A DNA stretch of 64,000 nt, taken from contig OY762911.1 of the NCBI GenBank assembly GCA_963666565.1, forward strand, positions 1,408,001-1,472,000, read 5' to 3'. The DNA comes from Thermoanaerobaculia bacterium (lineage in GTDB: Bacteria > Acidobacteriota > Thermoanaerobaculia > Multivoradales > Multivoraceae). Positions within the stretch are counted from its first letter, which is position 1, and every line of letters starts with the position of its first letter. A program made the translations under genes and the position numbers. Below the pieces are notes generated by a model. The model had not been told where the DNA came from. It worked only from the letters and a program-made list of their open reading frames with translations, and ran no database searches. Positions 11,187 through 27,245 of this stretch are shown here, piece by piece.

Positions 11187-12566
11187 TTACTCGCGCGGGA
11201 TGCCGTGGCGCTTCCGGTAGGCCGCCATGCGCGTCTCGATGGCCTCGCGGCTCAGTCCGAAGCTCTCCGGTTCGTAGACGTGCCGCCCGTAGCGGTGCTG
11301 CACGTTGCGGCTCGCGGTCCGCTCGGCGGCTCGGAGCGCGTCCGGTCCGAAGGGGATGCCGGTCCGCTCGCAGACCTGGTGCAGCACCGCCATCGGTTCG
11401 CGGACCAGGTCGTAGTAGGAGACGTCGACGAACCGCCGCGGATCCGCGGACGCCCGGACGCTCGCGGCGCGCTCGACCAGGCGGCACGTCTTGGCGAACC
11501 AGTGCGCGCCGATCTCCCGCGAGTCGACCCGGTCGCTGAACAGTCCGCGGGCGTGCGCGACCATGCTGCAGAAGGAGGGGATGGACTTCCGCGGATCGCG
11601 GTGGGTGCGAACGATCGTGGCGGTCGGGAAGACGTCGAGAGCGACGTCCAGGTACTCCATGTGATGCGGCGTCTTGAGCACCCAGTGAAGGCGAGGCCGT
11701 TGCCATTGCAGGATCTGGAGCAGGGTGCGGAACTCCTCGTATGCGCGTGCATGGTCCGGCCAGGATCTGCCTGAGGGGGCTTGTGTGCGGGTGGCCTCGT
11801 ACGCGCGCGCATGGTCCCGGCTTGATGCCGGCGGGGACGCGGGCGCGCCCTGGGCCTCGTGCGCGTGCGTACGATCCCGGCCTTCCAGCCAGCGGGCGTA
11901 GGCGGGCACGTGCATCGTCGCCTCCGCCGACTGGCTCATGAAGGACACGTCGAGCAGCAGCACGTCCTCCTCCGGTGCGTCGTGTTCGGCGGGATGGACG
12001 GCGAAGAAGGCGGGCGCCAGGTAGGCGACGGCCCGCTCGGCGATCAGGGCCTGCCGGATCCGGGCGTGAGGATCGCCCGGTTCCTCGCGCGGCAGGGGCA
12101 GCGGGTTCAGACCCTCCCAGGCCGCGATGGCGCGCATCTCCGGGAGCGAGGCGAGCAACCGGTGCAACGTGGTGGTGCCGGTCCGCTGCAGGCCGGCGAT
12201 GAGGACGATCGGGCCGAGTTCGATGTCCCGAATCTCCGGCCGGCGGCGGAGGAGTTCCTCGACCCGCAGGCGCGTCGCCAGCGCTCCCTCGATCCGCCGC
12301 CGCTGGATCAGCCGGCCGAGGAGCGTGAGGTCGGCTTCCTCGTCGATGGAGCGGACGAGGACGGAGAGCGGTTCCATGAACCAGTCGTCGCCGAAGCTGG
12401 ACAGGCCGGTCTTCCTTCGGGCCTTCGCGACCATCGAGTCGACGTCGAGCCGCCCGCTTGCGCCGAGGCGTCCCGCGGCGCGACCGGCCGCGTTCAACAG
12501 CGCGACGGGGAGCGGCCGGTAGGGCCGCTCGTAGTCGGTCGGCGTCTCGCTTACCCGCTTCGCCAT
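11187..12566 (-). CDS. PAPS-dependent sulfotransferase (Sulfotransfer_3 family)
   Basis: 5'-PSB loop GLQRTGTT, WVLKTPHH, 3'-PB HRDPRKSIPS; carries an internal 40-aa insertion. Confidence 0.88.
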   Translation of the reverse strand: MAKRVSETPTDYERPYRPLPVALLNAAGRAAGRLGASGRLDVDSMVAKARRKTGLSSFGDDWFMEPLSVLVRSIDEEADLTLLGRLIQRRRIEGALATRLRVEELLRRRPEIRDIELGPIVLIAGLQRTGTTTLHRLLASLPEMRAIAAWEGLNPLPLPREEPGDPHARIRQALIAERAVAYLAPAFFAVHPAEHDAPEEDVLLLDVSFMSQSAEATMHVPAYARWLEGRDRTHAHEAQGAPASPPASSRDHARAYEATRTQAPSGRSWPDHARAYEEFRTLLQILQWQRPRLHWVLKTPHHMEYLDVALDVFPTATIVRTHRDPRKSIPSFCSMVAHARGLFSDRVDSREIGAHWFAKTCRLVERAASVRASADPRRFVDVSYYDLVREPMAVLHQVCERTGIPFGPDALRAAERTASRNVQHRYGRHVYEPESFGLSREAIETRMAAYRKRHGIPRE

Positions 12567-12621
12567 CGGTCCGAGCCGTGGCCGGCGCATCCAGCAGGGC
12601 GGAACCCGGTCCGGCGCACGG

Positions 12622-13832: not shown

Positions 13833-14312
13833 TCAGTCGGCGGGACCGACCGGCGTGCCGTAGGGAACCGGCGGTTCGCGCTCGTGCGTCGGGCCGAGGG
13901 CAACGATGCGCCAGCGTCCGCGGAAGACGCGCAGGTCGAGGTCCTGCGTCTCGTAGCTCGCTTCCCGCACGTACTCGACGTCGAGCCGCACGGTGTCGCC
14001 CAGGTCCTCCTTGCCGGTCACGGCGACCCCCTTGAGGCCGGCGACGCGCTGGCGGAGGTACTGCCGGAAGGCGGCATCCCCCATCTCGTCGCGCACCGTC
14101 TCCAGTTGTTCGCGGACCTCGCCGGTGAAGAGGTCGAGGTAGGCACCGGCCTCTCCCTCGCGGCTGACGTCGATCATCTGCCAGAAGACGTCGCTCGGAT
14201 CGCCCGCATCCGTCCCGCGCTCCGGCAGCCGGTCGCGCAGCGCCGCGAGCAGGCCGGCCGCGAGCACCGCGACGGTCAGCGCGGTCGCGCCCAGGTTGCG
14301 GCTCATCTTCAC
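13833..14312 (-). CDS. Hypothetical membrane-anchored protein (possible NTF2-like fold), last gene of the ATPase-SPFH operon
   Basis: GTGA overlap with the hflK stop (alternative ATG at 14306); N-terminal hydrophobic helix; ends GRWRIV. Confidence 0.7.
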   Translation of the reverse strand: MKMSRNLGATALTVAVLAAGLLAALRDRLPERGTDAGDPSDVFWQMIDVSREGEAGAYLDLFTGEVREQLETVRDEMGDAAFRQYLRQRVAGLKGVAVTGKEDLGDTVRLDVEYVREASYETQDLDLRVFRGRWRIVALGPTHEREPPVPYGTPVGPAD

Positions 14313-15241
14313 GGCTGGCCGTTCGCCCCGGGCGTCAGCTCCCGGCGGAGGAAGTCGATGTCGATCGTGCTCTGGCCGGGCTCCAGGATCGTCTTCCGCA
14401 TGCGGGGAAGGACCCGCTCCATCGTCTCGAGATAGGTGCGCGTGCGGATCTCGGCGCGCGCCCCCTGGTCGGCGTTCGCGATCGAGCGGAACCGGTCGGC
14501 TTCGCCGGTCGCCCGCTCGACTTCGGCGGTGCGGAAGCTCTCGGCTTCGGCCGTGAGGGCGCGCGCTTGGCCCCGCGCCACCGGCACGACCTCGTTGCGG
14601 TAGCTCTCGGCCTCGCGGATCAGCCGGTCGCGGTCCTCGCGCGCGCTGGCGACGTCGTTGAACGCCTCCCGCACGAGACTCGGCGGGCTGACGCCCTCGA
14701 GGCTCGCGGAGAGGACGGTGACGCCGGTCCCGAAACGATCGAACAGCTCCTGCGAGGCGGCCTGGACGCTCTGCTGCACCGCGACCTTGCCGGTCGTCAG
14801 CAGCTCGTCGACGCCCATGCCGGCGACCACTTGGAGCAGGGCGCTGCGCCCGCTGGTCTCGAGCAGCGAGTCTGTGTCCGCGAAGCGCAGCGAGTAGGCA
14901 AGCGGATCGTGGATCGCGTAGAGGACGACGAGCCGCACGTGGACGACGTTGCGGTCGCCGGTCAGCCAGCGCGCCTCGGCCGGCGTCGCGTCGCCGCCCA
15001 GCACGCGGTCGGCCGCGGCGAAGCCGAGGGTCAGCCGCTTCGCTTCGCGCACCTTCAGCTTGTCCACCCGGCCGACGGGCCGCGGCCAGTTCCAGTGCAG
15101 GCCCGGCCCCGCCGGGGTCGCGCCGGCCCGACCGAGAACGCGCACGACGGCCTCCTCGTCCGGCGCGACGAAGTAGACGCCCCAGGCCAGCCACATCAGC
15201 GCCAGGGTCAGCGCCGCGGCCGGGACGGCTCGGAACTTCAC
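14309..15241 (-). CDS. hflK: HflK-like SPFH/band-7 protein
   Basis: N-terminal TM, GPGLHWNWP, LTGDRNVV, PP..VREAFNDVASARED and AESYRNEVVPVARGQA. Confidence 0.85.
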   Translation of the reverse strand: MKFRAVPAAALTLALMWLAWGVYFVAPDEEAVVRVLGRAGATPAGPGLHWNWPRPVGRVDKLKVREAKRLTLGFAAADRVLGGDATPAEARWLTGDRNVVHVRLVVLYAIHDPLAYSLRFADTDSLLETSGRSALLQVVAGMGVDELLTTGKVAVQQSVQAASQELFDRFGTGVTVLSASLEGVSPPSLVREAFNDVASAREDRDRLIREAESYRNEVVPVARGQARALTAEAESFRTAEVERATGEADRFRSIANADQGARAEIRTRTYLETMERVLPRMRKTILEPGQSTIDIDFLRRELTPGANGQP

Positions 15242-15309
15242 TCGGCGGCTCCGTCCAGCCGGATCGGCGTCATCGTCGGCACGGCGGCTTGAATGGCGCG
15301 ACGCCTCAC
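15238..15309 (-). CDS. 23-aa mini-ORF 2 (VRRRAIQAAVPTMTPIRLDGAAE), coupled by GTGA at both ends
   Basis: Its GTG overlaps the stop of mini-ORF 1 and its TGA overlaps the hflK GTG; it is one 68-bp repeat unit. Confidence 0.55.
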   Translation of the reverse strand: MRRRAIQAAVPTMTPIRLDGAAE

Positions 15310-15377
15310 TCGGCGCCTCCGTCCAGCCACATCGGCGCCAGTGTCGGCACGGCGGCTTGGATGGCTCGGAACTTCAT
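15306..15377 (-). CDS. 23-aa mini-ORF 1 (MKFRAIQAAVPTLAPMWLDGGAE), coupled to hflC by ATGA
   Basis: ATG overlaps the hflC TGA; copy of the hflK N-terminus fused to the hflC C-terminus. Confidence 0.55.
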   Translation of the reverse strand: MKFRAIQAAVPTLAPMWLDGGAE

Positions 15378-16444
15378 TCGGCGCCTCCGCCCAGCAGGGA
15401 GAAGAGTTCCGAGTCCGCCGACAGGATGACCGTCGTCTGGTCGTCGAGGATCGACTCGTAGGACTCGAGAGTCCGCAGGAACCGGTAGAGGGACGGGTCC
15501 TGCCGGTAGGCGTCGCCGTAGATGCCGGCCGCCTCGGCGTCGCCCTGGCCGCGGAGGATCTCGGACTCGCGGTAGGCGCCGGCGAGGATCAGTTCCCGGT
15601 CCCGGTCGGCTTCGGCGCGGATGATCATCGCCTGTTCCTCGCCCTGGGCCCGGTACTCTTTGGCGATCCGTTCGCGCTCGGCCCTCATGCGCGCGAAGAC
15701 GGACTCCAGGTTCTGCTCCGGGAAGCTCAGGCGGGTGAGTTGGACTTCGAGGATCTCGACCCCGAGCTGGGGGAGGGAGACGGCGACCGCGGACTCTCGG
15801 ACCTCGGCCGAGACCTTCTCGATCCGCAGTTTCTTCGGCTCGGTCGACACGAGTTGGGAGAGCTCCGTGCGGCCGAGCGCAGCCGCGAGGCCGGCCCAGA
15901 CCACGTCGTGAAGCCGCATCTCGGCGCCGGAGCGGTCGCCGATCGTCTCCAGGAACCGCGCCGGATCGGCGATCCGCCAGACGACCGCGGTGTCGACGAC
16001 CAGGTTCTTCTTGTCCTGGGTCAGGAACTCGGCCGGCGCCGGATCGTAGAGGAGCACCCGGTTGTCGAAGCGGAGCCGCCGGTCGATCGGCCACTTGAGC
16101 TTGAGGCCCGGCTCCTCGATCGTGCGGACCGGCTTGCCGAACCGGGTGACGATCGCGCTCTCGGTCTCCGGCACGACGAAGACGGACCGGGCCAGCGCGA
16201 CGATCGCCAGTACGGCCAGGCCGGCGTGCCACCAGGCGGTTCGGCGCGGCGAAGGCTCGTGCCCGTTGCCGCCGTCGCGAGGCTGGGCCTCGTTGTGGCG
16301 GCGCGTTCCGTCGTGGCGGTTCGCTCCGTCGTGGCGGCGTGTTCCGTCGTCGCTGTTCGCGCCGGCGGATCTGGGCGCGCGGGCATCCTTGCCCGCGTCC
16401 GCGTGGTGAGGGTCGTGGTGCTGATGATGGTCGTCGTGGGTCAT
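15374..16444 (-). CDS. hflC: HflC-like SPFH protein with His-rich N-terminal extension
   Basis: VTRFGKP, LTQDKKNLVVD, WRIADP, RMRAERERIA and FLRTLESY; starts MTHDDHHQHHDPHH; ATGA overlap with the ATPase. Confidence 0.88.
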   Translation of the reverse strand: MTHDDHHQHHDPHHADAGKDARAPRSAGANSDDGTRRHDGANRHDGTRRHNEAQPRDGGNGHEPSPRRTAWWHAGLAVLAIVALARSVFVVPETESAIVTRFGKPVRTIEEPGLKLKWPIDRRLRFDNRVLLYDPAPAEFLTQDKKNLVVDTAVVWRIADPARFLETIGDRSGAEMRLHDVVWAGLAAALGRTELSQLVSTEPKKLRIEKVSAEVRESAVAVSLPQLGVEILEVQLTRLSFPEQNLESVFARMRAERERIAKEYRAQGEEQAMIIRAEADRDRELILAGAYRESEILRGQGDAEAAGIYGDAYRQDPSLYRFLRTLESYESILDDQTTVILSADSELFSLLGGGAE

Positions 16445-19400
16445 TGCTCTACCTCGTTCTGGCCCGAGCCCGGTGGAGGAACGAAGACATCGAGGAGGCG
16501 GTTCGGCGTTTCGTCGACGAAGACGAAGCGCTTGCGGCCGCCGGTCGCGTCGGTGATCAGTTTCGGTTTGCCGGCAAGCGAGCCTTCGATCGTCCGGAGC
16601 TGGAGCCGGAACCGGTGCAGGTCGTTCGCACGCCGGTAGGCTGCGGCGCGCAGCGCGAAGCGTTCGCTCTCGCCGCGGCCGGCCTCTACGCGCCGGTTCC
16701 GGTAGGCCTCGGCTTCGAGGAGTTGCCGGCGCGCTTCCCCGCGGGCGATCGGCAGGCGCTCGAGCGCGTAGCCCTCGGCCTCGTCGATCAGGGTCTCCCG
16801 CTCCTCGAGCGCGCTGGCCGCGTCACGGAAGGCGTCGACGACGTCGAGCGGCGGGTGGGCGTCCTGCACGGTCGCGCTCACCACCTCGACGCCCGCGCCG
16901 AGGCTCTCGAGCATCGCTTCGAGATGCCCGTGCCAAGCGTCTTCGATGCCGTCGCGCCTGCCGGTCAGCACGTCGTCGAGTGAGTGGCCGGCGAGCACGG
17001 TGCGCAGCGACCGCTCGGCGCTCGTCTCGACCAGTCGCGCCGGATCGGCCGCGGCGAAGGCGAAGGCGGCGGTGTCGGCGACCCGGTAGTGGATCCGGGC
17101 CGCGACCTCGACCAGGTTCTCGTCGCCGGTCAGCATCAGGCGTTCGAGCGGCGGCGTCTCGTCGAAGCCGGCGTGACGCACGTTCCACTCGTAGCTCGGC
17201 GCCGCGTCGCCGTCGGCGGATGCGGCGTCTCGCGGCGAACCGACCGCCGCCATCCGCAGGCGATTCGGTTCGACGCGGGTCATCCGGTCCACCGGCCAGG
17301 GGAAGCGCCAGTGCAGGCCGGGTCCGAGTTCGCCACCGACGTGGCGGCCGAAGCGCTGCACGAGTCCGACTTCCCGGGGCTCGATCGTGCGAAGGCCGGT
17401 CGCTGCCCAGAGTGCGACCAGCGCGAACGGCGCCGCGCGCAGCAGCCGCGGTGCCGCGGACCGGATCCGCGCCGGGCTGTCTTCGAGCGCGTGTTCGAGG
17501 CGGTGGACCGCCGTGCGCCGGCCGGCGTTCCAGGCGTTCCAGCCGGCGGCCAAGCCGTCCACCGGACCCGCGAGAACCGGGAAGCGGCGCCAGCCGTGGC
17601 CCTCTCGCGCGGCCACCGCCCGCCCCTCGTAGAGGAGGCGGACGCAGTTCAGGATGACGAGCAGCGACGCCGCCTGGTGGACGATCGCCGCCGCGGCCGG
17701 GGGCAGCCAGCCGAAGGCGGCAAAGCCGACGGCGACGAAGTTGATGCCGAAGGCGAAGATCAGGATGCTGCTGCGGATGCGGGCGACGACGCGGCGGGCG
17801 TAGCGGAGCAGGGGCGCCAGATAGTCGAGCCGGTCGGGCAGCAGCACGACCTGGGCCGCCTCGGCCGAGAGGTCGGCGGCGCCGTGGCCGAATGCGGCGC
17901 CGACGGACGCGGCGGCGAGGGACGGCGCGTCGTTGATCCCGTCGCCGACCATGAGGACGTTGCGGCCGCCGCGGGAGAGCTCGCCGAGCCGGCCTACCTT
18001 GTCTTCGGGCAACAGTTCCGCCTGGACCTGGTCGATGCCGGCCCGGCGGCCGATCGTGCGTGCCGTTCCCGCGGCGTCGCCGGTCAGCATGACGATCGGA
18101 TCGACTCCGGCCTGCCGCAGGTCGGCGACGGCGCAGGTCGCTTCGTCCCGGAGCGGATCGGCGAGGGCAAGCGCGCCGCCGATCGCGCCGTCGATGGCGA
18201 CGGCCAGCCGCGTCTCGCCGCTTCCCGGAGTCGGCACGACGCTCTCGGCCACGGCTTCCATCCCGTCTTCGCCGACGACCTCCGCCAGCAACGCCTGGTT
18301 GCCGACCGCGATCTCGTGCCCGTCGACGGTGGCCGTCACGCCGCGGCCGGGATGGAGTCTGAAGCTCTCGGGCTCGGCGAGATCGAGCCGCCGCTCGCGG
18401 GCCTCGGCGACCAGCGCCCGGCCGAGCAGGTGCTCGGACGTCAGTTCGGCGCTCGCGGCGAGCCGGAGCAGGCGATTCTCGGCCATGTCGCCGGCGGGCG
18501 CGATCGCGGTCAGCGCCGGCCGTCCGCAGGTCAGCGTGCCCGTCTTGTCCAGCACGCAGGCGTCGATGCGCGACAGCGACTCGATCACGTCGCCGCCCTT
18601 GACCAGCGCGCCCTCGCGCGCCAGCCGGGCGATCGCCGAGGCCATCGCCGCCGGCGTCGCCAGCACCAGGGCGCACGGGCAGGCGACGATCAGCGCCGCC
18701 ACCGTGCGCATCATCTCGCCGGTGAAGAGGTAGATGCCGCCGGCGGCGACCAGCACCGCGGGCAGGAAGTAGCGGGCCAGCTTGTCCGCCGTGCGCACGA
18801 CCCGGGCGCGGCGGCTCTGCGCGTCCTCGATCAGGCTCGCGATCCGGGCGACGGTCGTGTCGCTGCCGGTCCGCTCGGAGCGGATGTCGAGGACGCCGTA
18901 CTCGTTCAGGCTGCCGCTCCACACCGCGTCGCCGACGGCGAGCTGGGCGGGCAGCGGCTCGCCGGTGACGCTGCTCTGGTCGACGGACGACGTGCCGCGC
19001 TCGATCGTCCCGTCCACCGGCACGCGCTCGCCGGCGAGCACGCGCACGAGGTCCCCGATCTCGACCTCGCCGAGCGCCACGAGCTCTGCGGTTTCCCCGG
19101 TGCCGTCGCGCAGCACACGCGCCTGCTCGGGCTGGCTGGCGACGAAGCCGGCGATCGCCCCCTTGGCGCGGTCGACCGTCCAGTGCTCGATGCCCTCGCC
19201 GATCAGCATGATGAACATGACCTCGGCGGCGGCGAAGTACTCGCCGATCCACACCGCGGCGCCCGCCGCGATCGCGATCGTCAGGTGCGACGAGAAGTGC
19301 CCCTGGAGCAGGTCGAGGATCGCGTGGCGGATGAGCGGATAGCCAGCGACCAGGGTGAGGACGAGCGCCAGGTCGATGCCGGCGACGGTGCGGACGACCC

Positions 19401-19536
19401 CGAGCAGGTAGAGCAGCAGCAGGACGCCGACGGCGACGCAGAGCGCGACGTAGCCGATCCGCTGCAGCAGCCCGTGGCTGTGCGAGTGGCCGTGGCCGTC
19501 GTCGTGGCCGTGAACCTGGAAATTGGGCGCGCCCAT
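16441..19536 (-). CDS. Heavy-metal P1B-type ATPase fused to a C-terminal HflK/SPFH domain
   Basis: His-rich N-terminus, TGE, CPC, DKTGT and GDGIND, then an extra TM plus GPGLHWRFPWP, LTGDENLV and HPP..VVDAFRD in one 1031-aa frame. Confidence 0.9.
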   Translation of the reverse strand: MGAPNFQVHGHDDGHGHSHSHGLLQRIGYVALCVAVGVLLLLYLLGVVRTVAGIDLALVLTLVAGYPLIRHAILDLLQGHFSSHLTIAIAAGAAVWIGEYFAAAEVMFIMLIGEGIEHWTVDRAKGAIAGFVASQPEQARVLRDGTGETAELVALGEVEIGDLVRVLAGERVPVDGTIERGTSSVDQSSVTGEPLPAQLAVGDAVWSGSLNEYGVLDIRSERTGSDTTVARIASLIEDAQSRRARVVRTADKLARYFLPAVLVAAGGIYLFTGEMMRTVAALIVACPCALVLATPAAMASAIARLAREGALVKGGDVIESLSRIDACVLDKTGTLTCGRPALTAIAPAGDMAENRLLRLAASAELTSEHLLGRALVAEARERRLDLAEPESFRLHPGRGVTATVDGHEIAVGNQALLAEVVGEDGMEAVAESVVPTPGSGETRLAVAIDGAIGGALALADPLRDEATCAVADLRQAGVDPIVMLTGDAAGTARTIGRRAGIDQVQAELLPEDKVGRLGELSRGGRNVLMVGDGINDAPSLAAASVGAAFGHGAADLSAEAAQVVLLPDRLDYLAPLLRYARRVVARIRSSILIFAFGINFVAVGFAAFGWLPPAAAAIVHQAASLLVILNCVRLLYEGRAVAAREGHGWRRFPVLAGPVDGLAAGWNAWNAGRRTAVHRLEHALEDSPARIRSAAPRLLRAAPFALVALWAATGLRTIEPREVGLVQRFGRHVGGELGPGLHWRFPWPVDRMTRVEPNRLRMAAVGSPRDAASADGDAAPSYEWNVRHAGFDETPPLERLMLTGDENLVEVAARIHYRVADTAAFAFAAADPARLVETSAERSLRTVLAGHSLDDVLTGRRDGIEDAWHGHLEAMLESLGAGVEVVSATVQDAHPPLDVVDAFRDAASALEERETLIDEAEGYALERLPIARGEARRQLLEAEAYRNRRVEAGRGESERFALRAAAYRRANDLHRFRLQLRTIEGSLAGKPKLITDATGGRKRFVFVDETPNRLLDVFVPPPGSGQNEVEQ

Positions 19537-19552
19537 CAGGAGGGTGCGGCGC

Positions 19553-20308
19553 TCACACCGCGAACAGCATGATGGCGAGGCCCGAGCCGGCGATCGCGAG
19601 GCCGCTCAGCGTGTGCGCGTGCGCGCGCAGGCCCGGGAAGCGCACGAAGTCGAGGCCGCGGTAGGCGAGCGTCACGACGCCGGCCATCGTCGCGATGGTG
19701 GTCGCGCCGAAGGCAACGGTCACCGGGACCACCGCCCACAAGCCGACCTGAAAGGCCGGCACCATGAGGATGGGGATCAGCGGCTCGCAGGGGCCGAGCA
19801 CGAAGATGACGAAGAGGCTCCAGGCGGTGAGACCGGCCACTCCGGCGGCGTTGCCGGACGGATGCTCGTGGCTTCCGGCCGCCGGATGGTCGTGCGAATG
19901 GACGAGGCCGCTTGCGTGGGCGTGGGCGTGGCGCTGCCGCCTGCGATTGCGGGCCAGCGACCAGCCGGCATAGGTAAGGCCGAAGGCGATGAGGGCCCAC
20001 GAAGCGAGGTCGCCGCGGACCGCCTCGATCGACTCGAAGACGCCGACGCGGCCCTCCATCCAATGGTGCCCTTCGCGGAGGTCCAGCCCGGTCGCGAAGA
20101 TCGCCAGCCCGATGCCGGCGCCGCCGAGCAGAACCGACGACGCGACATGCCCGCCGCCGCACAGTCCGGTGATCCACAGCGTCCGGCGCAGCGACCATCC
20201 GCGGGCCTTGCCGAGGACAACGAACGGCAGCGTGTGGTCGATGCCGATCAGCGTGTGGACGAAGCCGATGCCGACCGCGGCGCCGACCAGGACCCAGACC
20301 GCGTCCAT
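19553..20308 (-). CDS. His-rich Ni/Co transporter-like permease (UreH/RcnA/DsbD_2-like)
   Basis: HTLIGIDH in TM1, GGGH, HAHAHASGLVHSHDH loop, GPCEP, about 6 hydrophobic segments. Confidence 0.75.
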   Translation of the reverse strand: MDAVWVLVGAAVGIGFVHTLIGIDHTLPFVVLGKARGWSLRRTLWITGLCGGGHVASSVLLGGAGIGLAIFATGLDLREGHHWMEGRVGVFESIEAVRGDLASWALIAFGLTYAGWSLARNRRRQRHAHAHASGLVHSHDHPAAGSHEHPSGNAAGVAGLTAWSLFVIFVLGPCEPLIPILMVPAFQVGLWAVVPVTVAFGATTIATMAGVVTLAYRGLDFVRFPGLRAHAHTLSGLAIAGSGLAIMLFAV

Positions 20309-20315
20309 CTTCTAG

Positions 20316-20413
20316 GACCTCGCGCCGCAAAACGCGGCGAGGCGAGGGCCGCGGCGCGAGGTCGTGGAGAGGTGGGGGCTGGGGCCGAACATGGAGCTTG
20401 CGACAGGTTCGGC
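20316..20413 (-). promoter_or_regulatory. Structured intercistronic leader with a 13-bp stem covering the permease SD
   Basis: GACCTCGCGCCGC (20316-20328) pairs with 20351-20363; GAGGT lies 8 nt before the ATG; second hairpin 20384-20413. Confidence 0.45.
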
Positions 20414-20417
20414 GGCG

Positions 20418-23267
20418 CTACTCGACCGTCACCCAGATCGGCGACGACCAGGCGATCTCCCTGTTCTTCTGGATCACCCGCACATAGTAGTAGTGCTCGC
20501 CGGGCTCGACGTCGCTGTCGACGAAGGTCAGGTCGACTTCCCGGTCCAGGTTCTGGCGGTTGTAGAGGAAGGTCCGGTCGCGGATGATGTCGATTTGCTC
20601 GATGCGGGCGGTGCCGATCGCCTTGACCACCAGCTCGAAACGGCCCGAGACGGCGGGGACGATGTCGCCCTGCAGGTACTCCCGGCCGTTCGCGCGCATC
20701 CGGTAGTCGAGGATGATGTTGTCCGTCGCGGCGTACGAGTGGCGCCGCTTCATCGCGTCCAGGAGGCCTTCGGTGGTGAAGTCCTCGGCGATCGTGGCGG
20801 CGTAGGAGATGTGGGTCGAGATGTGGTCGGACGCGGCCTGCACGCCCAGCTTGTAGCCCTTGGCCCAGGCGTTCCAGACGAAGCCGGCGGGCTGGAAGCC
20901 TCCCTGCTGGCCCATCGGCTTCTCCGCCGTCGGGGCGCGCGGGGCGCCCTCGTACTCCGCCGACGTGCGGTCCCCCTGGTAGATCTCGACGAGCGGTTCG
21001 ACTTCCGGGTCGTTGTCCCGCCAGTCGGTGCCCATGCCGGTGGCCGAGGTATGGGGGATCGAGATCGCGTCGTGCTCCCGGAGGTACGCGAACAGCCGCG
21101 CCGCGCCCTTCTCGTGCCGCCGTTCGGCCTCGGTGATCTCGAGGGTCGGGATGCCGCGCCGGGGCGAGAGGATGTTGCGGTGACCGTCCGGGTAGCCGAT
21201 GCTGCGCTCGTAGGTGTAGACCGGCACGAAGCTTCCCGGCAGGCGGAAGATGTCGGCGATCTGCGGGTGCAGCCAGTTGACGTACTCGATGTCCTGGCCG
21301 CCCCGGTTGTTGTGCTCGCTGACGCCGAGGAAGTCGAGCTCGGCGGCGTCCAGAGCGTAGCGGTAGGCCTCCATCAGCGAGCCGTCGTTCAGGCCGTCGT
21401 GCGAGAACTCCGTGTGGCGGTGGGTGTCGCCCCGGTAGATGCGGTAGGTGCGGCCCTCCGACTCGATCGTGTACGCCCGGATGCGGGCGACGTCCTCGGC
21501 CTCGTTGGGATGGACCGGGTAGGTGTGGTACTCGCGGACGTCGGGGTCGACGAGCCGGGGCGGCGCGGCTTCGCCGGTCAGTGCGGGCAGTCTCGCCGCG
21601 TTGATCGAGGAGTGCTCGAAGAGGTACTCCTCGGAGTCGCGGTTGTCCGTCGGCCAGGCCGCGAACAGGTTGCCGCGGCCGTCGGCGGCCAGTTCCCAGC
21701 GCACGTCCTGGCGGCCGCGGCTGAAGGGCAAGTGGAGCGGCCGCGTCCATTCGCCGCCGGCGTAGGCGGTGCCGAAGATCTGCCAGGCGGCGCGGTGAGC
21801 GGGCGTGAAGTCCGGCGTGTCGCGGGCCCGGATCGTGCGGTGGCGGAAGAAGAGCCACATCCGGCCGTCGCCGTCGGCCTGGAGCACGGGCAGGTCGTTG
21901 AAGCCGGGGATGTACTCGGGAAGTTCGCGCTCGAGCGTCTCGTTCACGTCGGCCGCGGGAACCTGCCAGCGGCCGCCGTCCCACACCGCCACGGCCAGCG
22001 TGCGCCATTCGTAGAGGCGGGTCGCCTCCTTGTAGATCTCGAAGCCGGAGTCCTTGCCCCACTGGAAGCCGCTCTCGTTCCAGGCCGCCCAGAGGCGGTC
22101 CCGGGAGTCGCACGCGACCGAGACGTGGGCCTCGAACTTCGGCGTGCCGGCGACCGGCGCGACGTCCCCCCAGGCGCCGTCCGCGAAGCGCCGCGTCAGC
22201 ACGTCGTAGTTGCCCCGGTCGTAGGTGTCCCAGGCGACGTGGACGGAACCGTCGCCGCAGGCCGCGACCGCCGGCGTCCAGTCGTTGGCGGGAGAGGCCG
22301 AGACGGTTTCCTCGGCCGACCAGCGCGAGCCGTCGTGGCGGCGGGCGAGGATGTCCGAGCGGCCGCCGCGGAAGCCCTGCCAGACGAGCCAGAGGTTGCC
22401 TTCGGCGTCGGTGGCGAGTTCGTGCTCGATGTCCGCCTGGGGCGCCGAGGTCAGGCGTTCCGTCGCCGACCAGACGCCGTCGTCGGCGTTCTCCAGGTAG
22501 CGGCCGTAGAGGTCGAAGTTGCCGTCCGCCTGCTCGGACCAGACCGCCCAGAGCCGTCCCCGGCCGTCGCGCCCGAGCTTCGGCATCAGGCGATCGCCCG
22601 GTTCGCCGGTCACGGCGACGGCCGGTTGCCAGGTCGAACCGTCGAAGCGGCGGGCCACGATGGAAACGCCGCCGTCCCGGTAGGCGGTCCAGGCGGCCCA
22701 GACTTCGCCGTCCTCGCCGCTCGTCATCGTCGCGAAGTCGCTCTCATGGTCCGGCGACGACAGCGGTTCGGCCGGCGCGACCCGGTCGGCCAGTACGGCG
22801 CCGTCGAGGAATGCGAGTTCCTCGCCGACCCGGAGGTCGTGCGGCCGCAGGTCGAAGTCGCCGCGAAGAGTCGAGAAGGCGAGCCGGGTCCCCGACCGGG
22901 CCGCGACATCGACGACGACTCCCGGGTGGTGGAGGTAGGTCACCGTGCCCTTCGGGTCCTCCCACTGGTAGACCCGCCGCGGGTAGTTCATCCCCGGCCT
23001 GGTTGCCATCGTCCAGCTCGCGCCGTCGACTGACTCCGACGGGTGAACGCTCCAGTTCCGCAGAGCCAGCAGGTCGCCGCCCGAGACCTCGACCGAGCCG
23101 TCCCAGGACCGCGGCTCCGTGTCGGTGATCCCGAAACGGACTCGCACGGAGACGACGTCGTCGCCCGTGAGAGGAGGAACCGCCTGTGCGGCGAGCGTCC
23201 CGGTCAGGAGGAGAGTGCAGGCTAGACCGCTGACGGCGGCATGGAGCAGGGCGGGTCTTCGGGCCAT
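20418..23267 (-). CDS. Large secreted beta-propeller + PHP/DUF3604-like metallohydrolase domain protein
   Basis: Signal peptide, Trp-rich propeller-like repeats, GDTHRHTE, EHN, PHTS, ASDH and YYYVRV..AWSSPIWV. Confidence 0.75.
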   Translation of the reverse strand: MARRPALLHAAVSGLACTLLLTGTLAAQAVPPLTGDDVVSVRVRFGITDTEPRSWDGSVEVSGGDLLALRNWSVHPSESVDGASWTMATRPGMNYPRRVYQWEDPKGTVTYLHHPGVVVDVAARSGTRLAFSTLRGDFDLRPHDLRVGEELAFLDGAVLADRVAPAEPLSSPDHESDFATMTSGEDGEVWAAWTAYRDGGVSIVARRFDGSTWQPAVAVTGEPGDRLMPKLGRDGRGRLWAVWSEQADGNFDLYGRYLENADDGVWSATERLTSAPQADIEHELATDAEGNLWLVWQGFRGGRSDILARRHDGSRWSAEETVSASPANDWTPAVAACGDGSVHVAWDTYDRGNYDVLTRRFADGAWGDVAPVAGTPKFEAHVSVACDSRDRLWAAWNESGFQWGKDSGFEIYKEATRLYEWRTLAVAVWDGGRWQVPAADVNETLERELPEYIPGFNDLPVLQADGDGRMWLFFRHRTIRARDTPDFTPAHRAAWQIFGTAYAGGEWTRPLHLPFSRGRQDVRWELAADGRGNLFAAWPTDNRDSEEYLFEHSSINAARLPALTGEAAPPRLVDPDVREYHTYPVHPNEAEDVARIRAYTIESEGRTYRIYRGDTHRHTEFSHDGLNDGSLMEAYRYALDAAELDFLGVSEHNNRGGQDIEYVNWLHPQIADIFRLPGSFVPVYTYERSIGYPDGHRNILSPRRGIPTLEITEAERRHEKGAARLFAYLREHDAISIPHTSATGMGTDWRDNDPEVEPLVEIYQGDRTSAEYEGAPRAPTAEKPMGQQGGFQPAGFVWNAWAKGYKLGVQAASDHISTHISYAATIAEDFTTEGLLDAMKRRHSYAATDNIILDYRMRANGREYLQGDIVPAVSGRFELVVKAIGTARIEQIDIIRDRTFLYNRQNLDREVDLTFVDSDVEPGEHYYYVRVIQKNREIAWSSPIWVTVE

Positions 23268-23352
23268 GGCTCCTCCAAACGAGGCCAACAGGAACGAGGT
23301 TAGCGGTTCATCCTAGCGAGGAGTCTGCGCCGCACAACGTCGACGGTCCAGA

Positions 23353-23510: not shown

Positions 23511-25448
23511 GTGCAGCGACTGGCCGTTTCGATCCTGACCCTGGCCGCACTCGTGGCGTTCGGCTGCGCCACCGACGACTCCGCCGACCCGGCCGCGACC
23601 CCGGCCGGCGACATCGCGCAAGGCACCGGCAACCCGGCCGACCGCCAGGCCTTCTACGGCGACCTGCACGTCCACACGAAGTACTCCTACGACGCCTTCG
23701 TGTTCGCGACCCGCGCCGGACCGGACGAGGCCTACGAGTTCGCCAAAGGGAACCCGATCGAGCACCCGGCCGGGTTCGAACTGAAGCTCGACCGGCCGCT
23801 CGATTTCCAGGGCGTCTCGGACCACGCGAACTATCTCGGCATGCTGCCGGCGATGGTCGACCCCGACCAGCCAGCCTACAATCACCCTGCGGCCGAGACG
23901 GTGCGGAACGCCGAAACCGTCCAGGAGCGGCGAGGCATCTTCGCCGCCTTGCAGCCCTACGTGCGCTACATGGCCGACGCCGATCCGAGCATCCGGGAGC
24001 ATCTCGACAAGAACGTCGTCCGTTCCGCCTGGAGCGAGATCGCGGCTTCGGCCAACCGCCACTACGAGCCGGGCGTCTTCACCACCTTCATCGCCTACGA
24101 GTACACCTCGGCCGGCGCCGGCGGCATCTACGAGAACCTGCACCGCAACGTCGTCTTCCGCGGCGCCGAGGCGCCGGACATCCCCTTCTCGCGCCTCGAC
24201 TCCTACAACCCGGAGGACCTCTGGGCGCGGATGGACGAGTGGCGAGCCGACGGCTTCGAGGCGATCGCGATCCCCCACAACACGAACGGCTCGGGCGGGC
24301 GGATGTTCGAGTACGAGTACTTCGAGGGCGGCGCCATCGACCAAGCCTACTCGGATCTCCGCAGCCGCAACGAGCCGATCGTCGAGATCACCCAGACCAA
24401 GGGGACATCCGAGACCCACCCGGCGCTGTCGCCGAACGACGAGTGGGCGGGCTTCGAGATCATGCCGTATCGGGTCTCCACGAGCATCCTGAGCGAGCCG
24501 CCCGGCAGCTACGTGCGGGACGCCTACCGCCGCGGCCTGACGATCGAGGCCGGAGGCGTGTCGAACCCGTACAAGCTCGGCGTCATCGGCTCGTCCGACA
24601 CCCACGTCGCCGCCGGCTCGTTCGACGAGGCCAACTACTGGGGCGCCTCGGGCCTGATGCAGCAGACCGCCGAGCAGCGCGGTTCGGTGCCCAGCGAACC
24701 CGCGGCCGGAGCAGACTTGCAGAACCCCACCGCCGCGGCAGAACCGATCGACGACGGGACCGGCCGCATCTACCCGTTCACGACGGCGATCACGAACGGC
24801 GCCTCGGGCCTCGCCGCGGTCTGGGCCGACGCCAACACCCGCGAGGCGATCTTCGACGCCATGCGCCGCAAGGAGACGTTCGCCACCAGCGGTACTCGCA
24901 TGAAGGTTCGCTTCTTCGGCGGTGCCGGACTGGGCGACCTCGACCTCGACGACCCGGAATTGGTCGCCGCGGCATACGAGGCCGGCGTCCCGATGGGCGG
25001 CGACCTCACCGGCGACGACGACGACGAGGCGCCGAGCTTCCTCGTCTGGGCAATGCAGGACACGATGGCCGCATCGCTCCAGCGCGTCCAGATCGTCAAG
25101 GGCTGGGAATCCGGCGGCGAGACGGCGGAGATGGTCTACGACGTCGCCTGTTCAGACGGCCTCGAGGTCGATCCGGCAACCAACCGCTGCCCCGACAACG
25201 GCGCCACCGTCGACCTCAACGACTGCTCAACCAGCGCCGACGTCGGTGCCGCCGAACTCAAGACGATCTGGACCGACCCCGACTTCGACCCGGACCAGCG
25301 CGCCTTCTACTACGCGCGGGTGCTGGAGAACCCGACCTGCCGCTGGTCGTCCTGGGACGCACTGCGAGCCGGTACCGCGCCGCGCCAGGACTTCCCGGCA
25401 ACCATCCAGGAACGCGCCTGGTCGTCGCCCATCTGGTACACCCCCTGA
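23511..25448 (+). CDS. DUF3604 domain lipoprotein (PHP-like)
   Basis: Lipobox AFGC; FYGDLHVHT, IPHN, KGTSETHP, YYARVLENPTCRWS and IQERAWSSPIWY. Confidence 0.9.
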   Translation: MQRLAVSILTLAALVAFGCATDDSADPAATPAGDIAQGTGNPADRQAFYGDLHVHTKYSYDAFVFATRAGPDEAYEFAKGNPIEHPAGFELKLDRPLDFQGVSDHANYLGMLPAMVDPDQPAYNHPAAETVRNAETVQERRGIFAALQPYVRYMADADPSIREHLDKNVVRSAWSEIAASANRHYEPGVFTTFIAYEYTSAGAGGIYENLHRNVVFRGAEAPDIPFSRLDSYNPEDLWARMDEWRADGFEAIAIPHNTNGSGGRMFEYEYFEGGAIDQAYSDLRSRNEPIVEITQTKGTSETHPALSPNDEWAGFEIMPYRVSTSILSEPPGSYVRDAYRRGLTIEAGGVSNPYKLGVIGSSDTHVAAGSFDEANYWGASGLMQQTAEQRGSVPSEPAAGADLQNPTAAAEPIDDGTGRIYPFTTAITNGASGLAAVWADANTREAIFDAMRRKETFATSGTRMKVRFFGGAGLGDLDLDDPELVAAAYEAGVPMGGDLTGDDDDEAPSFLVWAMQDTMAASLQRVQIVKGWESGGETAEMVYDVACSDGLEVDPATNRCPDNGATVDLNDCSTSADVGAAELKTIWTDPDFDPDQRAFYYARVLENPTCRWSSWDALRAGTAPRQDFPATIQERAWSSPIWYTP

Positions 25449-25878: not shown

Positions 25879-25981
25879 GGGCGGCCAGTTCCATGCGCGT
25901 CAGCGCTGCGCGGACGCAGCGCCTGCTGCTAGCTTGGCCGTCCGGCGGCGACCGCCGGCACTTCGACGGAGACGCGCACCC

Positions 25982-27097
25982 ATGAAGATCGACGATCTCA
26001 GAATCACCCTCTTCGCCTGGAACGACATCCCGCCCCACTCCTACCTGGGCCGGGGTCCGTTCGACCCGGCGGGCAAGCCGAACCGGGTCGGCGAACTGGC
26101 TCTGGTGACGATCCGTACCGACGACGGGATCGAGGGCCACTCCTTCCTCGGCATGGGGGCGAGCATCGGCGCCAAGCAGTTGCTGCAGATGTTGAAGCCG
26201 ATGCTGATGGGCCGCGATCCGCTAGCCCGCGAGCGGATCTACCAGCAGATGCTGGAGCGGCGGCTGGTGGTTCAGCCCTGGGTGGTCGGCGCCGTCGACG
26301 TCGCCCTTTGGGACCTTGGCGGCAAGGCGGCGGGGGAGCCGATCCACCGGTTGCTCGGGACGTACCGGGAGAAGCTGCCGGCGTACGCGAGCTCCGAACA
26401 GCAGCCCAGCGTCGAGGCGTACGTCGAGCAGGCGCTCTCCTACCAGGGCAACGGCTGGCGAGGCTACAAGATCCACCCGTTTCGCGTATGGCGGGACGAC
26501 ATGAAGATCTGCCGGGCCGTGCGCGAGGCGGTGGGAGACGGCTTTCCGCTGATGCTCGACTCGACCTGGGGCTACGACTACCCGCAGGCCCTGCGGGTAG
26601 GCAAGCTGATCGAAGAACTCGACTTCGAGTGGTACGAGGACCCGCTCGGCGACCAGGACATCTACAACTACACGAAGCTCCGCCAGCAGCTACGGATCCC
26701 GATCCTGGCCACCGAGTTCCCGGGCGCCTGGTACGACTCGTTCGCGCCGTGGATCTACAACCGGGCAACCGACTACCTGCGCGGCGACGTCGCGCTCAAG
26801 GGCGGCATCACGGGCTGCCTGAAGGCGGCCCACCTGGCCGAGGGTTTCGGGATGAACTTCGAGATCCACCACGGCGGCAACTCGCTGAACAACGTCGCGC
26901 ACCTGCACCTGAGCGCCGCGATCCGAAACTGCGAGTGGTTCGAGGTTCTGCTGCCGGCGGGAGCGCAGAAGTACGGCCTGGTCGAGGACATCGAGGTCGA
27001 CTCGGAGGGCTACGTCCACGCCCCGACGGGCCCCGGCCTCGGCGTCGAGATCGACTTCGACCTGATCGAGCGGAACAAGACCGCCGAGCTCCGGTAG
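25982..27097 (+). CDS. Mandelate racemase/muconate lactonizing enzyme family enolase
   Basis: VDVALWDL, KIH, LMLD, WYEDP, ATE, GGITG and PTGPGLG motifs. Confidence 0.9.
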   Translation: MKIDDLRITLFAWNDIPPHSYLGRGPFDPAGKPNRVGELALVTIRTDDGIEGHSFLGMGASIGAKQLLQMLKPMLMGRDPLARERIYQQMLERRLVVQPWVVGAVDVALWDLGGKAAGEPIHRLLGTYREKLPAYASSEQQPSVEAYVEQALSYQGNGWRGYKIHPFRVWRDDMKICRAVREAVGDGFPLMLDSTWGYDYPQALRVGKLIEELDFEWYEDPLGDQDIYNYTKLRQQLRIPILATEFPGAWYDSFAPWIYNRATDYLRGDVALKGGITGCLKAAHLAEGFGMNFEIHHGGNSLNNVAHLHLSAAIRNCEWFEVLLPAGAQKYGLVEDIEVDSEGYVHAPTGPGLGVEIDFDLIERNKTAELR

Positions 27098-27101
27098 CCC
27101 G

Positions 27102-27238
27102 CTGGGTGCGCGGGTCTTCCGACCCGCTCGCGGGCGAAAGCCGCGGAGCGGCGCAGTCCGCACAAATCAGGCCGCCGGCCGGCGACGATGCTGGACGCCG
27201 CCTCCGGCGGCAGCGGGTCGGAAGACCCGCGCACCCAG
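27102..27238. repeat. Inverted type A REP pair between convergent genes
   Basis: Type A on + at 27102-27127 and on - at 27197-27238; internal GCCGC-GGA-GCGGC. Confidence 0.85.
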
Positions 27239-27245
27239 TGCGTTG

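Follow-up and report, generated by a model that had tools for sequence, protein, structure and literature searches.

The window analysed here, a 64-kb stretch covering positions 1408001-1472000 of the contig, carries a cluster of genes in which a heavy-metal ATPase continues into an HflK-type SPFH protein (HflK'), and all genes of this module and its described neighbours lie on the minus strand (Table 1). A single-frame fusion of a complete P1B ATPase, one extra TM helix and a full HflK-like domain had been proposed in the sequence-only reading, and our examination of the fusion protein P0001 bore this out. The heavy-metal P-type ATPase model TIGR01525 scored 525.8 bits over residues 85-634 (cut-off 346), the HflK model TIGR01933 scored 176.5 bits over residues 716-998 (cut-off 159.4), and Pfam placed E1-E2_ATPase, Hydrolase and Band_7 domains on the protein. 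The motifs TGE (191-193), CPC (286-288), DKTGT (330-334) and GDGIND (531-536) were read in the translation. A hydropathy scan gave eight TM helices ahead of residue 636, and the ninth TM helix with its linker returns the chain across the membrane; the AF2 model shows the extra helix at residues 687-712, followed by the SPFH domain (715-895) and a long helix (897-970). The HflK' part matches the E. coli HflK chain 7vhp_E with an E value of 9.2e-33, and carries a clade-specific loop, Y-E-W-N-V-R-H. This periplasmic loop, in the general form Y-x-W-[EN]-x-x-H, is common to HflK' of P1B and CDF fusions and is absent from HflK'', housekeeping HflK and the 2 SO_0444 fusions compared. His-rich tracts, also noted earlier, were confirmed in the translations at the N-terminus of the ATPase (residues 8-21), in the cytoplasmic N-terminal tail of HflC' and in a loop of the permease.

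Table 1. Genes, protein parts and sequence features of the module and its neighbours (positions within the window).
Feature	Position	Strand	Basis or remark
Exported 956-aa protein, PHP-type metallohydrolase C-terminal half	20418..23288	minus	DUF3604 above cut-off
His-rich polytopic permease, 251 aa	19553..20308	minus	16 nt upstream of fusion
P0001, fusion P1B ATPase-HflK	16441..19536	minus	single frame, 1031 aa
P1B-type heavy-metal ATPase part, residues 1-640	17617..19536	minus	TIGR01525, Pfam, motifs, hydropathy
CPC in M4	18673..18681	minus
HQ in M6	17674..17679	minus	invariant
Cytoplasmic linker and ninth TM helix, residues 641-714	17395..17616	minus	AF2 helices 656-685 and 687-712
HflK-type SPFH part HflK', residues 715-1031 and stop	16441..17394	minus	TIGR01933; 7vhp_E match
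HflK' loop, residues 782-788	17173..17193	minus	clade-specific
HflC-type partner HflC', 356 aa	15374..16444	minus	TIGR01932, 217.3 bits (cut-off 134.4)
68-nt tandem repeat, 3.1 copies	15187..15395		hflC'/hflK'' junction
Second, free HflK-type protein HflK'', 310 aa	14309..15241	minus	TIGR01933, 189.1 bits
Small N-terminally anchored protein, NTF2-like fold	13833..14312	minus	AF2 fold; without family match

As for the transported metal, the Cd-family model passes on the fusion ATPase (440, cut-off 313.5) and the Cu model falls just short (376.5, cut-off 397). Among solved chains, 7qbz comes closest to the ATPase part in sequence, aligning over query residues 8-635 at E 2.7e-97. The ATPase part has no HMA domain. 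When 38 fusions were compared, C286, C288, D330, H620 and Q621 were invariant, with CPC in 36 of them and CSC in the remaining 2. To our knowledge, the M6 motif HQxxS matches no P1B subgroup signature, and we know of neither a Zn/Cd/Pb nor a Co/Zn signature that corresponds to CPC in M4 together with HQ in M6. A scan of the ten neighbouring frames turned up no regulator that senses metal. The transported metal would most likely be a divalent transition metal of the Zn/Co/Cd kind.

ATGA and GTGA overlaps had been taken to couple the fusion to the genes that follow it. This holds at two junctions, where the ATG of hflC' overlaps the stop of the fusion (ATGA) and the GTG of the gene for the small anchored protein overlaps the hflK'' stop, but not between hflC' and hflK'', which lie 132 nt apart in this strain. 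The tandem repeat, which duplicates the hflK'' start, separates the two genes and holds two 22-codon mini-frames; the same-genus loci have no such spacer, and in an RNA-library contig of a ~92% identical relative 14 other letters replace positions 15224-15373. The His-rich tail of HflC' is limited to its own genus (the window and 6 loci), and 0-3 His residues are found there in 12 other loci. Neither Pfam nor NCBIfam gave a family match for the small anchored protein, whose AF2 model (pLDDT 81) matched NTF2-like chains at TM scores of 0.4-0.66. Its homologues adjoin the module in its own genus and in families f47 and f54, and contain no invariant His or Cys.

A His-rich permease had been placed ahead of the fusion, and it is indeed there. 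Its label as a Ni/Co-type permease is only a lead. Pfam and NCBIfam gave no match, and its look-alikes in the language-model Atlas are DsbD_2, UreH-like and NicO clusters. The permease adjoins the module in its own genus and, in divergent orientation, in 3 of 4 loci of family f54; it stands beside the module in none of 81 CDF loci. The exported 956-aa protein has a repeat-rich N-terminal half and scored 26.4 bits with DUF3604 (cut-off 20.4) and 47.2 bits with CehA/McbA, under the cut-off of 80. A secreted metallohydrolase had been counted as a member of the operon; the exported PHP-like protein exists, but its gene sits upstream of the permease across a 109-nt spacer with a strong hairpin, and the adjacency is mostly a trait of its own genus. 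All 6 same-genus loci examined have a full-length PHP protein next to the module, against 1 of 12 more distant ones (L041); L045 and L051 have short, weak PHP matches only. The PHP protein is a neighbour outside the general module, and delivery of metal to it, as had been suggested, cannot be the general purpose because the PHP and permease adjacency holds for few lineages.

The fusion is not unique to this assembly. Full-length matches were found in 22 of 401 sampled Acidobacteriota genomes; all 10 genomes of its own genus have it, as do families f47, f54 and f57 at 40-43% identity, and the linker is variable in length among homologues and His-rich in f57. Among the protein clusters listed, 119 of 120 combine E1-E2_ATPase, Hydrolase and Band_7. 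Whether databases already held the architecture had been in doubt; they hold it in hundreds of clusters named 'FtsH protease activity modulator HflK' or 'Cu+-exporting ATPase'. When we compared gene neighbourhoods, all 18 loci examined (6 same-genus and 12 more distant), fetched out of 21 other carrier genomes, had the fusion, HflC' and HflK'' in this order on a single strand. The frame is unbroken in 21 of the 22 carrier genomes, with an in-frame TGA near the SPFH start/junction in G393. Contigs of 5458 and 5220 nt from two runs, which may come from the source sample, span the whole fusion gene with no differences. Based on these observations, we conclude that the fusion is real and conserved, an HMA-less CPC-type P1B ATPase continuing into a periplasmic HflK-type SPFH protein. 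The module is widespread, and our literature searches found no paper on it, neither a published description of the P1B-HflK fusion nor one of the CDF-HflK or SO_0444-HflK cassettes.

The HflK' clade is also fused to CDF exporters, at 80 loci in many phyla, 75 of which hold the full trio of HflK', HflC' and HflK'' (the other 5 are interrupted by a contig end). This form occurs in at least 298 protein clusters. The 150 best-matching relatives of the SPFH part include 45 of middle length, of which 32 pair Cation_efflux with Band_7 and 3 pair ArsP_1 with Band_7. A further fusion partner of the HflK' clade is the SO_0444 type of Cu/Zn exporter; seven Acidobacteriota genomes carry a cassette of SO_0444 permease, HflK', HflC' and HflK'', and NF033936 scored 369 and 384 bits with SO_0444-type fusions (cut-off 300). 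In the tree, P1B-form HflK' (18 rows, support 98) nests within CDF-form HflK' (clade support 90). Curated models name all three fused transporter families as exporters. Three unrelated kinds of predicted metal exporter occupy the same place in one scaffold module, and the scaffold is tied more strongly to metal export because it is fused to CDF and SO_0444 exporters as well. A large double-parvulin prolyl isomerase directly adjoins the trio in 27 of 80 CDF loci, with Rotamase domains in 4/4 of the scanned neighbours and an N-terminal hydrophobic segment seen by eye in one example. In 16 of the 80 CDF loci, genes for response regulators and histidine kinases are located upstream. Copies were also found in metal islands and on a conjugative plasmid among other metal genes, the annotated plasmid copy being accompanied by PCu(A)C and SCO chaperone genes. 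Rhizobium metallidurans is among the carriers. The isomerase and PCu(A)C/SCO neighbours hint at handling on the periplasmic side, and no single client protein explains the module because the accessory genes differ between lineages.

We lean, with modest confidence, towards a dedicated HflK/C-like ring that would tether divalent-metal exporters and keep the exported metal local, and would not serve FtsH modulation. HflK', HflC' and HflK'' would co-assemble on the periplasmic side of the membrane into a ring or dome like that of HflK/C, in which HflC' would alternate with subunits of either HflK type. One exporter would be tethered to the ring per HflK' subunit, and the free HflK'' would lower the pump count of each ring. 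The pump would move divalent metal out of the cytoplasm into the patch of membrane beneath or next to the dome; the exporters would be held in a private patch so that the metal stays local, and it might then be handed to exported proteins or buffered.

A scaffold for detoxification only, with the ring clustering or stabilising exporters in a microdomain under metal excess and the dome having no metal-handling role, is possible but rather unlikely. It would suit the efflux nature of all three transporter families, the copies in metal islands and on the conjugative plasmid, the response-regulator and histidine-kinase genes, and the occurrence in R. metallidurans. The conserved loop that HflK' has of its own and the prolyl isomerases beside the CDF loci argue against it, as does the unfused analogue, the Pseudomonas aeruginosa hmtA locus, which rises on Zn starvation and not on excess (PMC4542158, PMC8531726), although none of these points is decisive.

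A separate hflK scoring 274.8 bits lies at ~598-600 kb of the genome, next to an hflC match (598475-598816). The sole ftsH of the genome maps to contig position 785421 and hflX to 3798352, and therefore neither lies inside the window, in agreement with the sequence-only reading. The housekeeping pair is kept beside the trio in 9 of 10 carriers checked, and a higher-scoring separate hflK beside a weaker hflC-like match was seen in G000, 4/5 distant carriers and 4/4 CDF-form carriers. In G221, a genome of 100% completeness, no separate HflK exceeds the cut-off, and the trio there may be the sole HflK/C. Fused HflK', HflK'', HflC', housekeeping HflK and housekeeping HflC form five clean clades (SH-aLRT 96-98), and HflK' and HflK'' are sisters (SH-aLRT 83) with housekeeping HflK excluded. 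By these separate clades and the separate hflK with its neighbouring hflC match, the trio is a dedicated paralogous set coexisting with the housekeeping hflK-hflC pair, as had been supposed.

FtsH binding may nevertheless persist because the two HflK-type parts score above the equivalog cut-off that NCBI sets for HflK. The trio might then still recruit FtsH, and the fusion would bring the pump close to the protease so that its degradation could be regulated or its quality controlled. HflC' likewise exceeds its equivalog cut-off, and both G221 and the solved E. coli HflK/C-FtsH assembly (7vhp, 7wi3, 9cz1, 9cz2) are consistent with such turnover. We consider it improbable, since the clades of the trio lie apart from a housekeeping pair that most carriers retain, and ftsH is absent from the window in a genome with one ftsH (the 99 loci were searched with this window's proteins only).

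The closest case in print is the hmtA locus of P. aeruginosa, which is unfused and bound by Zur. In PA2439-PA2435, the P1B ATPase HmtA is accompanied by three genes of the HflK/HflC family, and these genes are up 5.6- to 14.4-fold under Zn depletion (PMC4542158); the PA2439 promoter is bound by Zur (PMC8531726). Overexpressed HmtA reportedly increases the Zn and Cu content of cells, and the importer claim is said to need confirmation (PMC10393844). The main text of a 2026 paper on P. aeruginosa SPFH proteins, in its available parts, does not mention HmtA (PMC13086221). Since HmtA is a reported importer that rises under Zn starvation, it fits poorly with simple detoxification. These reports (PMC10393844, PMC8531726, PMC4542158) would favour an ATPase that brings Zn or Cu in under metal starvation, the SPFH dome gathering scarce periplasmic metal. 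We regard this as very unlikely for the present module, because CDF and SO_0444 transporters, efflux proteins by curated models, take the same place in it, and the import claim for HmtA is itself in need of confirmation (PMC10393844). Finally, misassembly or a recent read-through of two genes, which the TGA in G393 might suggest, was rejected as having a negligible chance in view of the cluster listing, the 21 intact carriers, the conservation across families and the identical contigs from two runs.

The reading that we prefer, a dedicated ring tethering exporters, can be set against known systems. With the solved P1B ATPases 7qbz (Cd/Zn/Co type), 4umv (ZntA) and 3rfu (CopA), the fusion shares a full-length pump alignment and the catalytic motifs, and the alignment with 7qbz includes the two N-terminal helices, with no HMA domain in the aligned stretch; unlike all three, it adds a C-terminal extension of 390 residues and pairs the M4 CPC with an invariant M6 HQ. 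E. coli HflK/HflC-FtsH likewise has side-by-side HflK- and HflC-type genes, whose products share the layout of one N-in TM helix, an SPFH domain in the periplasm and a long helix. Here, however, the set has three members, two of the HflK type and one of the HflC type, against two in E. coli; HflK' is joined to a transporter and has its own loop, ftsH is unlinked, and the clades are separate from the housekeeping pair of the same genome. The CDF-HflK and SO_0444-HflK cassettes have the trio in identical order, but the transporter is a six-TM CDF protein with an HxxxD/HxxxD site in the former and an SO_0444-family permease in the latter, and in the CDF cassettes a double-parvulin isomerase is found at 27/80 loci where the present locus has the NTF2-like protein, the permease and the PHP protein. 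PA2439-PA2435, by its published description (PMC4542158, PMC11761036, PMC8531726), likewise combines a P1B ATPase and three SPFH genes, in a locus tied to zinc homeostasis, but there the ATPase and SPFH proteins are unfused, and HmtA is a reported importer that rises under Zn starvation.

Both halves of the fusion matched curated models. Residues 85-634 matched the curated model TIGR01525 with 525.8 bits against a cut-off of 346.25, residues 716-998 matched the HflK model TIGR01933 with 176.5 bits against 159.4, and Pfam domain calls agreed with the ATPase plus HflK assignment. The motifs TGE, CPC, DKTGT, and GDGIND are all readable in the translation, and C286, C288, and D330 are invariant among 38 fusions. 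When we scanned the hydropathy, eight transmembrane helices were found in the pump part, all before residue 636. P1B ATPases have a cytoplasmic C-terminus, and since the number of helices is even, the pump part also ends in the cytoplasm; the ninth helix thus places the SPFH domain on the periplasmic side, as in HflK. An AF2 model built from 38 sequences (mean pLDDT 73.9) contains helices at 656-685 and 687-712, with the SPFH domain spanning 715-895 and a long helix following it (897-970). HflK', the SPFH part of the fusion, is therefore predicted to have an HflK-type build, in which 687-712 is an N-in transmembrane helix and the SPFH domain is periplasmic. The ninth transmembrane helix is part of the HflK portion and not of the pump. 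The sequence-only reading had seen a P1B-ATPase joined to HflK in this frame, and this was borne out by the scores of both halves, the motifs, and the topology.

Every gene of the module locus in the window lies on the minus strand, and HflK' is accompanied by an HflC-type partner (HflC') and a second, free HflK-type protein (HflK''). The operon layout drawn from the sequence held for the genes and for the fusion, while gene coupling and gene order required small corrections, namely a repeat spacer between hflC' and hflK'' and the PHP gene in first place.

Features of the module locus, in the direction of transcription
Feature	Coordinates	Strand	Remarks
Exported 956-aa protein	20418-23288	-	PHP-like C-terminal half; first in transcription direction
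Spacer between PHP gene and permease	20309-20417		109 nt; strong hairpin, -50 kcal/mol, z -3.84
His-rich permease, 251 aa	19553-20308	-	16 nt upstream of fusion
Fusion, 1031 aa	16441-19536	-	passes NCBI curated cut-offs for both halves
HflC'	15374-16444	-	ATG overlaps stop of fusion
Spacer between hflC' and hflK''			132 nt; 68-nt tandem repeat
HflK''	14309-15241	-	HflK-type
Small anchored protein, NTF2-like	13833-14312	-	GTG overlaps HflK'' stop

The tandem repeat (15187-15395) comprises 3.1 copies with 77% matches, by which the hflC'/hflK'' junction is triplicated. Two mini-frames of 22 codons, which have ATGA and GTGA overlaps, result from it. The two genes are joined directly in same-genus loci, and the extra units are absent from an RNA-library contig of a relative of about 92% identity. 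The GC-rich hairpin upstream of the permease has 15 pairs, was equalled by none of 200 shuffles, and ends 8 nt before the permease ATG with no U-run behind it; among same-genus loci, the length of this spacer ranges from 3 to 730 nt. A consensus scan of the locus found no promoter, one terminator-like site was found against a shuffle mean of 2.2, which is fewer than expected by chance, and no metal regulator was present among the ten neighbouring frames scanned. The neighbours at 11187-12590 (minus strand) and 25934-29012 (a sulfotransferase, a mandelate racemase/enolase-type enzyme, an alpha/beta hydrolase, and a putative cyclase) are not metal-related by family.

The fusion is a genuine gene and not an artefact. 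The whole fusion gene and the repeat are spanned with zero differences by contigs from two public runs (5458 and 5220 nt), which may derive from the same sample as the source genome. Further public runs contained only small shares of the sequence words searched, and an RNA-library run shows depth gaps over the ATPase part. A search for the ATPase plus Band_7 architecture, suggested in the sequence-only reading, was performed with the linker and SPFH part as query among proteins of 567-1805 aa. It found 153 clusters, and E1-E2_ATPase, Hydrolase, and Band_7 occur together in 119 of the 120 listed. These clusters come from Holophagales, Bryobacteraceae, and other Acidobacteriota, and carry source names such as 'FtsH protease activity modulator HflK' or 'Cu+-exporting ATPase'. 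Full-length matches were present in 22 of 401 sampled Acidobacteriota genomes. All ten sampled genomes of the window's own genus have the fusion at 84-100% identity, and outside the genus it was found at 40-43% identity in one, seven, and four genomes of the Acidobacteriota families f47, f57, and f54, respectively. Within the order and class of this genus, no sampled genome from another genus carried the fusion, so the distribution is patchy. The comparison of gene neighbourhoods, also called for beforehand, gave a uniform picture: in all 18 loci fetched from the 21 other carrier genomes, the fusion, HflC', and HflK'' follow one another on one strand, with HflC' in the middle. In one genome (G393), the fusion is split or broken by a TGA and a frame change where the SPFH part begins, and another (G186) has a short insertion within the ATPase part with the frame still open.

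We then compared the trio of HflK', HflC', and HflK'' with housekeeping HflK and HflC. HflK'' scored 189.1 bits against TIGR01933 (cut-off 159.4) and HflC' 217.3 bits against TIGR01932 (cut-off 134.4). The genome, a single contig of 4.79 Mb, contains a separate housekeeping hflK at about 598-600 kb (274.8 bits) with an adjacent hflC match (598475-598816). Its single ftsH lies at 785 kb, about 620 kb from the window (1408-1472 kb), and hflX lies at 3.80 Mb, also outside it; the separate housekeeping set that the sequence-only reading had asked after is thus present. A tree of 68 SPFH sequences resolved five clean clades (SH-aLRT 96-98), one each for fused HflK', HflK'', HflC', and the housekeeping versions of HflK and HflC. 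The sister pairing of HflK' with HflK'' has a support of 83, and HflC' stands apart from housekeeping HflC. Orthology of HflK' or HflK'' with housekeeping HflK is ruled out by these separate clades. A separate, higher-scoring housekeeping HflK was also found in four of the five distant P1B carriers checked. In a 100% complete genome (G221), the two HflK proteins of the module are the only ones above the family cut-off, and the trio may double there as the housekeeping HflK/C.

The SPFH part is not confined to P1B ATPases. When residues 691-1031 alone were searched against 1.84 billion representatives, many of the best 150 matches were proteins of 515-665 aa. Among 45 matches of middle length in this set, 32 combined Cation_efflux (CDF) with Band_7 and three combined ArsP_1 with Band_7, and the remainder were mostly fragments of ATPase fusions. 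The CDF form comprises at least 298 clusters. A scan of one genome per species gave 289 confirmed stretches, from which 80 loci (L089-L168) were kept. These come from Zixibacteria, Eisenbacteria, Gemmatimonadota, Planctomycetota, Nitrospiraceae, Hydrogenedentota, Desulfobacterota, NC10, Rokubacteria, Chloroflexota, Actinomycetota, and Verrucomicrobiota, and from the cultured Alphaproteobacteria Rhizobium metallidurans DSM 26575, Allosediminivita pacifica DSM 29329, Carideicomes alvinocaridis, and Tianweitania sediminis. In 75 of the 80 loci, an HflC-type and then an HflK-type gene come after the CDF fusion on the same strand, and a contig edge cuts off the remaining five.

A third form emerged when the 401 Acidobacteriota genomes were scored with an HflC' profile. 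The 22 P1B carriers reached 443-467 bits, a second tier reached 339-415 bits, and housekeeping HflC reached at most 285 bits. The second tier, counted without one match in an unpublished genome, includes one CDF cassette and seven cassettes of an SO_0444-type permease, HflK', HflC', and HflK''. Three further second-tier HflC-like matches (337-339 bits, in genomes G007, G026, and G042) have in-frame stops and lie beside unfused HflK-like genes. Two permease fusions scored 369 and 384 bits against NF033936 'SO_0444 family Cu/Zn efflux transporter' (cut-off 300), and the CDF fusions pass TIGR01297.

In a larger tree of 186 sequences, HflK' and HflK'' again group as sisters, with housekeeping HflK outside them. 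The P1B form of HflK' (18 rows, support 98) lies inside a CDF clade (support 90), where its exact sister has a support of only 39, and HflK'' of the P1B form lies inside that of the CDF form, beside the CDF loci L127 and L139 (support 90). Based on this nesting, we read the P1B form as the probable outcome of a transporter exchange on an already existing module. HflK' of the P1B and CDF forms also share a periplasmic insertion, the loop Y-x-W-[EN]-x-x-H (YEWNVRH at residues 782-788 in the present fusion), which is absent from HflK'', housekeeping HflK, and the two permease fusions compared. The nearest unfused ATPases of the phylum, in seven published loci (L033 and L035-L040, counted without L034 of an unpublished genome), lack both an HQ motif in M6 and any SPFH gene within 1.5 kb.

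The pump itself has no HMA domain. Its N-terminus is His-rich, and in the own genus this cytoplasmic tract is matched by another in the tail of HflC'; in family f57 (L043, L044, L047-L049), a His-rich tract of HHLQH-type repeat units lies in the linker between the pump and the ninth helix. M4 carries CPC in 36 of the 38 P1B fusions and CSC in the other two, and HQ in M6 is invariant among them. Zn/Cd/Pb P1B ATPases are characterised by CPC in M4, Lys in M5, and Asp-x-Gly in M6, and Cu+ (CopA-type) ATPases by YN in M5 and MxxSS in M6. The fusion belongs to neither subgroup. ZntA/CadA-type (Zn/Cd/Pb) membership was rejected by NF033775 (340 against a cut-off of 1240) and PRK11033 (374 against 1005), and M6 reads HQAAS in place of Asp-x-Gly. 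Cu+ membership was rejected at 376.5 bits against TIGR01511, just under the cut-off of 397, and M6 is also without MxxSS. The broader Cd-family model TIGR01512 was passed (440 against 313.5), the closest solved chain to the pump is 7qbz, and the CDF partners carry an HxxxD/HxxxD site. Since the P1B, CDF, and SO_0444 families are all exporters by their curated model names, we infer from these sequence comparisons that the pump exports a divalent metal of the Zn/Co/Cd kind.

The accessory genes vary among lineages. The own genus, f47, and f54 have the NTF2-like anchored protein next to the module, and this protein was rejected as a metallochaperone because its His, Cys, and Met residues are never invariant. 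The permease is found in the own genus and f54; it matches neither PF03824 nor PF13386, searches at E up to 10 gave only a chance VIT1 match, and its look-alikes in the atlas are NicO/UreH-like/DsbD_2 clusters (scores 0.93-0.97), which serve as a lead only. The 956-aa PHP-like protein scored 47.2 bits against NF038032 (CehA/McbA; cut-off 80) and 26.4 against PF12228 (DUF3604; cut-off 20.4) with no single stretch passing. The sequence-only reading had proposed metal delivery to this enzyme, and this does not hold as a general purpose of the module: a full-length PHP protein lies beside it only in the own genus and at the G221 locus (L041), and two further loci (L045 and L051) gave short, weak matches. 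Divergent to the PHP gene, a full-length DUF3604 lipoprotein (23511-25448, plus strand, 735 bits) places two exported PHP-type proteins side by side; it accompanies the module in the six same-genus loci examined and nowhere else among the loci compared.

None of these four proteins occurs beside the 81 CDF loci. In 27 of the 80 CDF loci kept from the genome scan, an isomerase of 650-775 aa with two rotamase domains (double parvulin) lies directly beside the trio, and the one viewed has an N-terminal hydrophobic segment. In 16 of 80, response-regulator and histidine-kinase genes lie upstream. The CDF form is also carried by a conjugative plasmid of Aquibium oceanicum (L203, NZ_CP018172.1, 8549-26090), where the order is regulator, kinase, 'hflK' (the CDF fusion), hflC, hflK, peptidylprolyl isomerase, P-type ATPase, PCu(A)C, and SCO. 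This metal island also holds Nramp, and the RefSeq name of the CDF fusion there is plain 'hflK'.

Taken together, the fusion belongs to a widespread module that tethers a metal exporter to a dedicated set of HflK', HflC', and HflK''. The best-supported reading, slightly more likely than not on the grounds of homology and gene content, is that the trio would assemble into a ring or dome that surrounds the pump or lies next to it. The module may act in handling exported metal locally, purely as a scaffold, or in a connection to FtsH. A more specific proposal, which we consider rather unlikely, is that the tethered exporters pump Zn-type ions into the HflK'-HflC'-HflK'' dome, a protein-walled periplasmic chamber acting as a metallation compartment. 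Scarce or toxic metal would then be kept at the membrane and passed to exported proteins during folding, with the loop Y-x-W-E-x-x-H as the first metal acceptor and with parvulin foldases as helpers in some lineages. If true, this would be the first SPFH cage whose client is encoded within the same gene.

The role and client choice of SPFH rings and cages (HflK/C, prohibitin, stomatin, and flotillin) are still debated, and the fusion names an SPFH client by a covalent bond. Three unrelated metal exporters are each joined to one HflK lineage, and many phyla retain both partner subunits. The pipeline name 'FtsH protease activity modulator HflK' conceals a metal transporter here. The system is directly testable, including in the cultured and harmless R. 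metallidurans, A. pacifica, T. sediminis, and A. oceanicum.

The fusion is described nowhere in the main texts covered by our literature search, and a 2009 survey of prokaryotic SPFH proteins is silent on fusions, ATPases, cations, transporters, and metal. For unfused hmtA-type loci, the SPFH part is not discriminating, since in a search of 401 Pseudomonadota genomes housekeeping HflK scored as high as any other match; five genomes examined further had only extra two-gene hflK-hflC pairs. The nearest published case by description is PA2439-PA2435 of Pseudomonas aeruginosa. This locus is reported to consist of three HflK/HflC-family genes and the P1B ATPase HmtA and to go up 5.6- to 14.4-fold on Zn depletion (PMC4542158), its proteins are also up (PMC11761036), and the PA2439 promoter is bound by Zur (PMC8531726). 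HmtA is reported as an importer, for which a review wants confirmation (PMC10393844), and HmtA is not named in the main text of a 2026 P. aeruginosa SPFH study that covers a three-gene SPFH operon (PMC13086221). The module described here may account for the unexplained SPFH genes of this zinc-regulated hmtA locus.
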